Assembly (NCBI GenBank): GCA_016707895.1
Contig: JADJGV010000002.1
Span: 463,695-527,694 of the forward strand
Direction of reading: 5' to 3'
From: Myxococcales bacterium
GTDB taxonomy: Bacteria > Myxococcota_A > Polyangia > Haliangiales > Haliangiaceae
Length of the DNA: 64,000 nucleotides
A program made the position numbers and the translations under genes. The notes under the pieces are model-generated. The model was not told where the DNA came from and made no database searches. It saw only the letters and a program-made list of their open reading frames with translations. This document shows positions 35,897 through 39,325 of this stretch, piece after piece (the first letter of the stretch is position 1; each line of letters opens with the position of its first letter).

Positions 35897-38191
35897 TCAG
35901 GCGTTCAGCGCCAGCTGGGTCGCCCGCGCCAGGTTGCGCTCGAGCTGGAGCTTGCCGGCGTCGTACTGCACCGGCCACGGCACGTCGGTGACGCCCTGCT
36001 CGGCCGCGGCGTGCAGCGTCCAGTACGGATCGGCCAGGTGCGGCCGCGCCAGCGCGCACAGATCGGCGCGGCCAGCGGCGATGATCGTGTTGACGTGGTC
36101 GGCCTCGAAGATGTTGCCGACGGCGATGGTGGGCACGTGCAGCGCGTTGCGGATCTGATCCGACAGCGGGACCTGGAACATCCGGCCGTAGACCGGGCGC
36201 TCGTGCTTGACCACCTGCCCTGACGACACGTGGACGATGTCGACGCCGGCGGCCTGGAACCGGCGGGCGATCTCGACCGCCTCGTCGCCGGTGTTGCCGT
36301 CGGGTGCCCAGTCGTGGGCGCTGAGCCGCACCGACATCAGGCGCTCGGTCGGCCACGCCGCGCGCATCGCCGCGAACACCTCGAGCGGGAACTTGCAGCG
36401 GGCGTCGATGCTGCCGCCGTAGCGCGTCGGCGCGCCGGTTGGTCAGCGGCGACAGGAACGACGACAGCAGGTAGCCGTGGGCGCAGTGCAGCTCGAGCAG
36501 ATCGAACCCGCAGCGCGCGGCGCGCTTGGTCGCGGCGACGTGGGCGGCCAGCACCGCGTCCATGTCGGCGCGGGTCATCGTGCGGGGCACCTGCGACGTC
36601 CCCGGCAGGTACGGCAGCGGCGACGGCGCGATCAGCTCCCAGCCGCCGGCGGGCAGCGGCTGATCGGCGCCCTCCCACGCCAGCTTGGGTGGCGCCCTTG
36701 CGGCCGGCGTGGCCAAGCTGCAAGGCGATCTTGGTCGATCCGGCGCGGTGGACGAAGCCGACGACGCGCTTCCACGCGGCTTCCTGGACGTCGTTCCACA
36801 GGCCGGTGCAGCCCGGCGTGATGCGCGCCTCGGGCCCGACGCACGTCATCTCGGTGAACATCAGGCCGGCGCCGCCGCCGGCGCGCGCTGCCGTAGTGCA
36901 CGAGGTGGAAGTCGTCGGGCGTGCCGTCCTGGGCCGAGTACATGCACATCGGCGACACCGCGACCCGGTTGGGGATCGTCAGGTGCCGCAGCCGGAACGG
37001 CGTGAACATCGGCGGCACCGCGCGGTCGGGCACGCCGCTCTGGGCGGCGATCGCGCGATCGACGCCGGCGATGTAGGCCGGGTCGCGCAGCCGCTGGTTG
37101 GCGTGGCCGACCCGCTGGCTGCCGGTGAGCAGCGAGAACACGAACTGCTGCGGCGGCAGGTCGACGTAGCGGTCGACGTGCTCGAACCAGGTCATCCGGT
37201 TGCGCGCCGCGCTCTGCAGCTTGAGCGCCTCGACCTCGCGCTCGGCCTGGTAGCGGGCCAGCCGGGTCGGGACGTCGCCGTCGGTCGACTGCAGCACCGC
37301 GGCCAGCGCGATCGCGTCCTCCATGGCCAGCTTGGTGCCCGAGCCGATCGAGAAGTGCGCGGTGTGGGCGGCGTCGCCGAGCAGGACGATGTTGTCCTTG
37401 TACCAGCGCTCGCACAGCACGCGGTTGAAGCGCAGCCACACCGCCGAGCCGCGCAGGTGGCGGGCGTTGGAGATCAGGCGGTGACCGTCGAGCAGGTCGG
37501 CGAACAGCTCCTCGCACAGCGCGATCGACTGGTCGGCGGTCATCGCGTGCAGGCCGGCGGCGCGCCAGACGTGCTCGGGGGTCTCGACGATGAACGTCGA
37601 CATCTCGTCGTCGAACCGGTACGCGTGCAGGTTGAACCAGCCGTGCGCGGTCTGGCGGAACGCGAACGTGAACGCGTCGAGCTTCTTCTTGGTGCCGAGC
37701 CAGATGAACCGGCAGTCGCCGACCTGGATCCGCGGGTTGAAGTGCGCCTCGTGCTTCTTGCGGGTCACCGAGTGCACGCCGTCGGCGCCGATCACCAGGT
37801 CGTACTGCTTGGCGTAGACGTCGGGGTCGGTGAACTCGGTCTCGTACTGGATCGTCACCCCCAGCGCGCGGGCGCGGCCCTGGAGGATCTGCAGCAGCTT
37901 CATCCGGGCGATGCCGCAGAAGCCGTGGCCGCTCGACGTGATCTTCTCGCCCTTGAAGTAGGTGTCGATGTCGTCCCAGTGGCGGAACGCGCCCTCGATC
38001 TGCTCGACCACCTCGGGCGCCTGGGCCCGGAAGCCGTCCATGGTCTTGTCAGAGAACACCACGCCCCAGCCGAAGGTGTCCTCGGCCTTGTTGCGCTCGT
38101 AGACGGTGACCTCGTGGCGGGGGTCCGCCTGCTTCATCAGGATCGCGAAGAACAGGCCGGCGGGGCCGCCGCCGAGACAGAGGATGCGCAT
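35897..38191 (-). pseudogene. Salicylyl-CoA 5-hydroxylase / 2-aminobenzoyl-CoA monooxygenase-reductase-like bifunctional flavoprotein (FAD monooxygenase plus Old-Yellow-Enzyme domain); OYE half split over three frames
   Basis: Begins at M391 of ORF 36632..39361 (MRILCLGGGPAGLFFAILMK..., GDAAH). OYE N-terminus (MFTPFRLRHLTIPNRVAVSPMCMYS) in that frame, continues in ORF 36337..36861 ([22 protein letters not shown]...) and ORF 35897..36379 (OYE C-terminus): at least 2 frameshifts. Confidence 0.6.
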
Positions 38192-39325
38192 CGGATACTC
38201 CTGGAACTCAGATCTCGACCGCGAAGCCGTAGGCCGCGGGGTTCTCTCGAGAGGCGGCAGCACCGACTCCTGCACCAGCAGCGTCCGCACCGCCCACACG
38301 TCGCGGAAGATGCGGTAGCGCAGCGCGGTGTTGTCGAGATACTCGACGCCGGCCGAGCCGCCGGTGCCGGTGCGGCGGCCGATGATCCGCTCGACCATGC
38401 GCGCGTGGCGCTGGCGGAAGATCACGAACGCCTGCTCGAACGCGACCAGGCTGTCGATCACCGCGCGCGGCCAGGCCAAGAGCGGCAGCTCGCGGTAGCT
38501 CTCGATGAAGATCAGCGCGGCGCGCACCCGCGAGGCGCGGGCCCGATCGGGCTCGGCCACGTCGGTGGCCAGCAAGAAGTCGCGGGCGCCGTCGATCTCG
38601 CGCTGGAACCGCTCGTCGAGGCGGTCGGCGTCGGCGGGGTTGCGGGTGGCCTCCTTGGCCAGCGCCAGCGCGGCGCGCGAGCTGCCGGCGTGGGCCGCGC
38701 AGTAGCTGTCGATGAACGCGCGGACCCGGGCGTCGTCCTCGGGGTGGCCCGGCATCGAGCCCTGGATCGGCGTGCGGTACAGCCAGTTCGAGATCGCGTC
38801 GACCAGGGTCGGCGTGTCGGCCAGCGCGGCCTCGACCCGGCGCGACGCCGACGTGGCGCTGCCGTCCGGGTTCTTCAGCATCGCCATGTAGCTCTTCTCC
38901 TGGCCGAGCGGGATGCGCATCGTCTCGGGCAGGCCGGCCAGGATCTCGATCTGCCGCAGCTGCGCCGACTGGAAGCCGCTGGCCGGGTTCAGCTTGTCGC
39001 GGAACGCCAGGTAGTCGCGCGTGGTCATCGTCTCCATCAGCGCGAAGTGGTCGGCGATGAGGCCGAGGATCTGCGACATGCGATCGATGCCGCGCACCGC
39101 CGAGGCCAGCGCCTGCTCGGGCACCGGCACCTTGACGAACAGGTCGCGGGCCGCGACCAGCTCGCGCAGCACGAGCCGCATCCACAGCTCGTCGATCTGG
39201 TGGATCGTGATGAACATGACCTCGTCGTTCGCGAGCTTGCTCGCGTCGGGCTCCAGCCCGCTCTGCAACGACAGGAGCTCCTCGACCCGGATGTAGTCCC
39301 AGTACGCGGTAGGGGTGCGCGCCAT
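38192..39325 (-). CDS. kynA: Tryptophan 2,3-dioxygenase (TDO), in-frame with the downstream hydroxylase (no intervening stop)
   Basis: M13 of ORF 36632..39361: MARTPTAYWDYIRVEELLSLQ...DEVMFITIHQIDELWMRLVLREL... typical TDO. Reading frame continues without a stop into MRILCLGGG. Confidence 0.7.

Follow-up and report, generated by a model that had tools for sequence, protein, structure and literature searches.

A tryptophan 2,3-dioxygenase-monooxygenase-reductase reading frame in a Myxococcales assembly is very probably two adjacent genes joined by a frameshift found in that sequence alone

The 2-aminobenzoyl-CoA (anthraniloyl-CoA) monooxygenase-reductase (ACMR) of Azoarcus evansii, like the proteins described by the NCBIfam model NF006101 (bifunctional salicylyl-CoA 5-hydroxylase/oxidoreductase), joins an N-terminal FAD aromatic hydroxylase to a C-terminal OYE/FMN reductase in one polypeptide of ~763 amino acids (aa). 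Genes of this type elsewhere adjoin CoA ligase and β-oxidation genes, and β-oxidation-like gene clusters have been described for the anthranilate CoA-thioester pathway (PMC4539516). A precedent of a different kind is the chimeric open reading frame (ORF) of draft and metagenome assemblies, in which indels confined to one assembly and located at short repeats join or split adjacent genes on the same strand. Here we examine a locus at positions 35897 to 39325 (minus strand) of a 64,000-nucleotide (nt) stretch of the Myxococcales assembly GCA_016707895.1 (contig JADJGV010000002.1, positions 463,695 to 527,694), hereafter called the window. At this locus, a gene of the tryptophan 2,3-dioxygenase (TDO) family runs in frame into a gene of the ACMR / salicylyl-CoA 5-hydroxylase type, and an initial annotation had raised the possibility of a TDO-hydroxylase-reductase tri-domain enzyme. 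Our analysis indicates that the locus very probably consists of two ordinary genes (39325-38208 and 38191-35897) and a frameshift present only in the window, not of one fusion enzyme, and that the tract in which the frameshift lies is most likely poor consensus sequence.

Reading frames at the junction of the two genes

The window has a G+C content of ~72%, and ~99% of the codon third positions at the TDO/monooxygenase locus are G or C (GC3). In the sequence as given, no stop codon lies between the TDO domain and the monooxygenase start MRILCLGGGPAG, as the initial annotation had stated: the ORF listing contains a fused ORF of 909 aa (36632..39361, minus strand) that is stop-free from the TDO domain into the FAD monooxygenase and the start of the OYE domain. 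The ends of the locus had also been placed correctly, with an ATG at 39325 and a final stop at 35897. Pfam assigned residues 16 to 362 of the 909-aa ORF to Trp_dioxygenase (E 2.4e-50) and residues 393 to 711 to FAD_binding_3; of the Oxidored_FMN model, only positions 2 to 45 were matched, at residues 785 to 827. The junction peptides of the fused ORF read ...LERTPRPTASRSRSEFQEYPMRILCLGGG... and LERTPRPTASRSRSEFQEYPMR.

This ORF leaves the OYE frame after ~45 residues and ends at a stop codon (36632..36634, minus strand) that does not belong to the OYE frame; ~80 out-of-frame OYE residues form its C-terminal end. The remaining OYE domain is found in ORFs 36337..36861, 35646..36716, and 35897..36379, which occupy two other frames and then return to the first. 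With the domain spread over three frames, there is no continuous tri-domain frame, and the window does not encode the tri-domain enzyme that had been proposed. The same scatter bears out the earlier suspicion that the OYE part had been affected by indels.

The linker between the TDO and monooxygenase domains does not resemble coding sequence. The TDO frame has G or C at every third position down to CTG CCG and then slips, 34 nt before a TGA codon at 38210-38208. From the slip to this old stop (38245-38207), 5 of the 13 codons in the frame of the ORF end in A or T, versus ~1% in the flanking genes (P ~3e-5). Shifted by one base, the sequence reads GAG AAC CCC GCG GCC TAC GGC TTC GCG GTC GAG ATC TGA (ENPAAYGFAVEI followed by the stop), and all sense codons of this frame end in G or C. 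Beyond the TGA lies an intergenic spacer of 16 nt (38192..38207, minus strand), which contains the Shine-Dalgarno sequence AGGAG (38202-38198), followed after 6 nt by the monooxygenase ATG at 38191. A frame switch that leads to a TGA and then to a Shine-Dalgarno sequence and an ATG is what a frameshift shortly before an ordinary stop/Shine-Dalgarno/start junction leaves behind. Because the linker codons are not coding-like and the next ATG comes after only ~18 stop-free codons, a run that is nothing unusual at 72% GC, the openness of the fused frame carries little weight.

Relatives and corrected gene products

Seven related loci have a separate TDO gene of 371 to 379 aa, ending ...PPLENPAAYGFAVEI, that adjoins an uninterrupted monooxygenase-OYE gene of 761 to 764 aa. 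A Logan contig (L001, 95.8% nt identity) encodes a 371-aa TDO and, 16 nt downstream, a 763-aa monooxygenase-OYE protein. Contig JAEUJY010000077 (L002) has a full-length TDO match (query residues 1 to 371) and a 762-aa monooxygenase-OYE ORF, JAWKQV010000002 from Kofleriaceae (L003, identical to L084) encodes proteins of 379 and 762 aa, and a more distant Myxococcales metagenome-assembled genome (MAG; L085) encodes proteins of 373 and 764 aa. Both genes are also separate in L086, a metagenome contig in which the TDO ends in its own TGA, followed by a Shine-Dalgarno sequence and a separate monooxygenase ATG. An ENA contig (L082), 99.06% identical over 3.8 kb, encodes a 371-aa TDO and a monooxygenase that stays in one frame up to the chimeric end of the contig; its last ~200 nt (3821-4020) are unrelated A-rich sequence, by which the gene call is cut to 649 aa. 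The 16-nt spacer of the window recurs in L001, L002, and L082, and in JAGPCY010000054 (L004), which likewise has separate TDO and monooxygenase-OYE genes, the TDO stop instead overlaps the next start (ATGA). The initial annotation had itself named orthologs encoded as two genes as evidence against a fusion, and two genes were found at every one of these loci.

At 38247..38248 (minus strand), the window has a GA (or AG) dinucleotide insertion that changes CTCGAGAAC to CTCGAGAGAAC and removes the TDO stop; it is absent from L001, L002, L003, L004, L082, and L086. Since the monooxygenase of the relatives is in the +1 frame with respect to the TDO, an insertion of +2 puts the two genes in register. 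Placed 34 nt before the TDO stop, the GA dinucleotide thus shifts reading into the frame of the downstream gene and creates one ORF. Every other coding indel among the relatives in the multiple alignment is a multiple of 3, and the window alone has indels of +2, +1, +1, and +1. In the monooxygenase region, the window differs from L082 by 8 substitutions and exactly these window insertions, and by nothing else. The window-only GA insertion lends support to the fallback offered by the initial annotation, namely, that one and the same indel process removed the TDO stop and affected the OYE part.

A junction-pattern scan of JGI metagenome contigs did not find the GA-insertion allele and returned one contig, L086, with the uninserted allele. 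The fused ORF was searched against 5.8 billion proteins, and of the candidates that had words in common with it the best 120 were taken, a procedure that very distant fusions may escape; no match among them covered more than 56% of the ORF, and none had the PF03301 + PF01494 architecture. Two candidates for a real TDO fusion were rejected: P0107 (548 aa) is simply over-called at its N-terminus, and the 405-aa P0119 is a TDO with a frameshift. Together with P0131 (monooxygenase, 540 aa), P0119 is one of the other frameshifted public calls of the same two genes, both metagenome-derived, and indel problems in these GC-rich genes recur in public protein collections.

The TDO-family gene occupies 38208..39325 (minus strand), as delimited with Pfam PF03301, the GC3 track, the relatives P0001 and P0002, and alignments with the structures 4hka and 5ti9. 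Its corrected product has 371 aa and ends ...VLPPLENPAAYGFAVEI; in the window, the last 11 residues are replaced by read-through. The protein belongs to PF03301 (172.3 bits, gathering score 34.9, residues 16 to 362). Unlike members of the bacterial TDO equivalog TIGR03036, it scores below the cut-off of that model (147.3 bits in two stretches versus 390.7). We take TIGR03036, with its 264 model positions, to represent a short bacterial TDO type and the window protein to be of a long type. The window TDO aligns end to end with Drosophila TDO (4hka; residues 8 to 361) and matches human TDO (5ti9; residues 7 to 367). The 4hka alignment keeps the motifs HQ..ELW, SGFQS.Q.R, RH..MV.R, and GTGGS, and opposite these the window protein has FITIHQIDELW, SGFQSAQLR, FRQRHARMVERIIG, and GTGGSAG; in TDO structures, these motifs hold the distal His, the substrate Arg, the proximal haem His, and the GTGGS loop. 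The first gene is thus a predicted divergent TDO family protein of the long, eukaryote-like type, which would convert tryptophan to N-formylkynurenine. The corrected TDO has 5,337 homologs, the best 120 of which are stand-alone proteins, mostly of 369 to 405 aa. The closest, P0001 (from a Kofleriaceae MAG, according to its source) and P0002, are 98 to 99% identical to it, are 371 aa long, and share the C-terminus ...VLPPLENPAAYGFAVEI.

The second gene (35897..38191, minus strand) has the ACMR layout once corrected to 763 aa, and it differs from genes of that type in that three 1-nt insertions cut it into four frame segments (38191-36887, 36885-36688, 36686-36423, and 36421-35897). As sequenced, no single window ORF gives a full-length match to NF006101. 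After removal of the three inserted bases, the reconstruction scored 1254 bits against a cut-off of 1078 and matched with residues 1 to 760 (model positions 1 to 763 of 768); both corrected proteins are full-length members of their families. PF01494 and PF00724 occur in one polypeptide in the reconstruction and in all close homologs (761 to 768 aa), an arrangement that is broken in the window. About 65 loci have a full-length homolog of this protein, each of them recovered as one uninterrupted tblastn high-scoring segment pair, and P0123 (763 aa) is 97% identical to the corrected product. JGI names these homologs anthraniloyl-CoA monooxygenase. The domain calls of the initial annotation, a TDO followed by an FAD hydroxylase that is joined to an OYE as in the ACMR / salicylyl-CoA 5-hydroxylase type, therefore hold by both Pfam and NF006101. 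The second gene is predicted to encode a bifunctional FAD-hydroxylase/OYE-reductase of this family, which may act on an aryl-CoA thioester derived from the N-formylkynurenine product of the first enzyme.

The solved structures closest to residues 1 to 350 of the second protein are those of VioD, the FAD hydroxylase of the violacein pathway (8gqr and 3c4a), and those closest to residues 390 to 745 are OYEs of the YqjM/XenA class (5ocs, 8pun, and 1z41). VioD and these OYEs are single-domain proteins, unlike the two-domain window protein, and the structure search found no solved structure of a full-length ACMR-type fusion. The corrected protein is ~72% identical to homologs in Azoarcus/Aromatoleum MAGs, which sit in β-oxidation-like clusters. 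In the Aromatoleum locus L014, for example, the neighboring genes encode a thiolase, short-chain dehydrogenases, a PF04199 cyclase, an enoyl-CoA hydratase, an acyl-CoA dehydrogenase, and a 3-hydroxyacyl-CoA dehydrogenase; we take PF04199 to be the family that includes kynurenine formamidase.

We also observed that the Kofleriaceae monooxygenase-OYE protein is 70 to 75% identical to betaproteobacterial homologs (Aromatoleum, Azoarcus, Sulfuritalea, and Burkholderiaceae; loci L005-L026) and ~50 to 55% identical to the homologs of Polyangiaceae and Labilithrix (L041-L046). The closer match to the betaproteobacterial proteins suggests horizontal transfer of this gene between Myxococcota and Betaproteobacteria.

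A tract of window-only indels

Alignment with the relatives placed the three insertions of the second gene (all on the minus strand) at 36886, where a G was added to a GCGCGC run next to an AC>GG change at 36879-36878; at 36687..36689 (~36688), where a C homopolymer was extended from CC to CCC; and at 36422, where a C was added to GCGC. The first and second of these OYE frameshifts each open a new frame, the third restores the original one, and together they scatter the OYE half over three frames. Three further minus-strand genes are affected when aligned with L001 and L002. The gene for a pectin-acetylesterase-like (PAE-like) lipoprotein has lost 1 nt at 35487, 2 nt at 35451 (these two deletions compensate for each other), and 1 nt at 35374, and a GGDEF gene has lost 1 nt at 33411. 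An EAL gene (33610-34340) has lost 88 nt at 33871 (33866-33875), a segment flanked by CTGGTCG direct repeats in L001 and L002, and this deletion takes out the DDFGAGYS core and shifts the frame. The frame switches in these three neighbors (33411..35487) were confirmed by tblastn with the proteins of the relatives, and all three genes are intact in L001, L002, and L084.

At least nine window-only indels therefore lie at 33.4-38.25 kb, in homopolymer, dinucleotide, or short-direct-repeat contexts, and break five consecutive, functionally unrelated genes. Further 1-nt differences from L002 at 30595-31083 have no assignable polarity, and the tract possibly reaches 30.6 kb. A GC3-based six-frame segmentation of the whole 64-kb window revealed no change of frame outside the tract that lacked a stop at a gene boundary, and the control genes, including those for a 1099-aa protein (24054-27353), murB, murC, murG, ftsW, and a Ser/Thr kinase, are intact. 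Under uniformity, nine frame-breaking events within 7.6% of the window have a probability of ~1e-9. The window differs in this respect from the usual frameshift-made chimeras of draft assemblies, in that its indels are packed into one tract of 5 to 8 kb rather than spread along the contig.

Taken at its widest, from 30595 to 38248, the tract holds all frame-breaking indels detected in the 64 kb, and six consecutive genes are affected. The plus-strand gene at 30.3-31.1 kb may be a rhomboid gene, judging by synteny with L084.

Over the ~3-kb TDO and monooxygenase interval covered by L082, the differences between the window and L082 were polarized with L001 and L002. On the lineage of the window there were 6 substitution events and 4 insertions that break the frame, and on that of L082 there were 9 substitutions and no indels. 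Indel:substitution ratios of 0.05 to 0.15 are typical for neutral bacterial sequence; with this range as an assumption, the probability of at least 4 indels is 0.0003 to 0.013. GC3 is perfectly kept in every shifted segment, and no indel is common to the window and any relative.

We consider it likely that the assembly has a poor consensus in the tract at 33.4-38.25 kb, as might arise where coverage was low or where long reads bridged a stretch; the indels would then be errors, not mutations. This reading is favored because five adjacent unrelated genes are affected, with three of the indels in a single domain, and because GC3 is kept and the relatives share none of the indels. Several points weigh against it. 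The sequence by itself does not directly distinguish error from real mutation. At least nine indels in 5 kb and none in the other ~55 kb would be unusual for a uniform sequencing process, and because error this local is unusual, the extra assumption of a low-coverage or long-read-bridged stretch is needed; moreover, base-calling errors do not typically take the form of an 88-nt deletion between direct repeats. The clustering in a single tract, which speaks against uniformly distributed sequencing error, would be in keeping with real indels in a strain that recently lost function across ~5 to 8 kb, with the TDO C-terminus altered, the OYE, PAE-like, EAL, and GGDEF genes broken, and the fused ORF reduced to a pseudogene product. 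All of the events are of slippage types that also arise in vivo, among them the 88-nt deletion between 7-nt direct repeats, and the preservation of GC3 and amino acid identity is consistent with very recent events. We nevertheless regard such decay as unlikely, given that it must have struck five adjacent unrelated genes with small indels on a lineage with only ~6 substitutions over ~3 kb, and must have shifted the frame of one domain three times independently with hardly any substitutions alongside, while 0 of the 7 relatives share any indel. Whether the indels are errors or decay, the tri-domain enzyme fails: the window ORF cannot make the OYE domain, and two separate genes are the natural state.

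It is very improbable that the indels, the GA insertion included, are real and that the strain makes a fusion of TDO and FAD hydroxylase without a working reductase half, and slightly less probable still that such a fusion is functional, coupling tryptophan ring opening to aryl-CoA hydroxylation. The ORF is open, the TDO core up to PPLE (the end of homology to Drosophila TDO) and the whole FAD domain are intact, and ACMR reportedly releases 5-hydroxyanthraniloyl-CoA under conditions of limiting reduction (PMC3534580). This architecture is unique to one sequence, however, with two genes in the 99% identical sibling L082 and no counterpart in the best 120 matches of the protein search; the linker codon usage is not coding-like, the ORF ends in out-of-frame OYE residues, and the second gene retains its Shine-Dalgarno sequence and ATG. 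If it were genuine, the fusion would amount to a natural experiment, with two translationally coupled genes only just welded into one polypeptide. Programmed recoding, in which ribosomal frameshifting at four sites would give separate or fused products, can be given almost no credence. Nothing specific favors it beyond the fact that the three OYE shifts have the same direction and sum to 3 nt; the sites share no common slippery motif, and we rejected the idea on the grounds that no relative has the shift sites and that all of the relatives encode the same protein in a single frame.

The preferred reading, two genes in a poorly resolved tract, carries a caution for annotation. GC-rich draft and metagenome sequence has long stop-free off-frames, and a short indel near a stop can fake a multi-domain fusion; GC3 and one close relative quickly expose such cases. 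Gene calls in the window at ~30.6-38.3 kb (EAL, GGDEF, PAE-like lipoprotein, and the plus-strand gene at 30.3-31.1 kb) are best regarded as unreliable.

The conserved gene pair and its surroundings

What remains of biological interest is modest and lies in the pairing of the TDO and hydroxylase-reductase genes alone. The two genes are adjacent in seven Myxococcota loci, as they are in the window (35897-39325), with TDO identities of 75 to 99% and otherwise unrelated surrounding genes. They probably form a conserved two-gene operon that is translationally coupled, as would be expected from the 16-nt AGGAG spacer or, in one relative, the ATGA overlap. Where ACMR-type genes elsewhere adjoin CoA ligase and β-oxidation genes, the partner in Kofleriaceae and other Myxococcota is a TDO gene instead.

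The initial annotation had pointed to kynurenine formamidase, kynureninase, and aryl-CoA ligase as possible neighbors. Pfam detected none of these domains in the ~40 window ORFs scanned, and no formamidase, kynureninase, or CoA ligase genes were found beside the pair in the L084 and L085 neighborhoods. The literature on ACMR and salicylyl-CoA 5-hydroxylase provided family background and no linkage to TDO, and the pairing seems to be undescribed in the literature searched. Both enzymes belong to known families, and it is plausible that they catalyze the first and a late step of a route from tryptophan through kynurenine and anthranilate to anthraniloyl-CoA. The pair hints at such a tryptophan-to-anthranilate-to-CoA-thioester route in Kofleriaceae and other Myxococcota, and without ligase, formamidase, or kynureninase neighbors, it may mark an undescribed tryptophan-derived pathway.

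Between the TDO gene and an SRPBCC gene (40291-40728) lies a plus-strand ORF of 317 aa without a Pfam match (39334-40287). The corresponding spot is empty in L001, holds ~3 kb in L002, and contains LysR, DJ-1/PfpI, and ABM genes in L084; from this comparison, the position just upstream of the TDO operon is a putative variable insertion hotspot.

Elsewhere in the window, cell wall and division genes (ddl, murB, murC, murG, and ftsW) are found at 40742-51388 and 59051-60535 on the minus strand, all of them intact. Directly after murG is an intact gene for a 797-aa Ser/Thr kinase with a PQQ-like β-propeller (47854-50247). At 218-1381 (plus strand), a Roadblock/LC7 gene adjoins a small Ras/Arf-like GTPase gene, a pair that we take to resemble the MglB/MglA polarity module of Myxococcota and that would fit the taxonomic placement of the contig.

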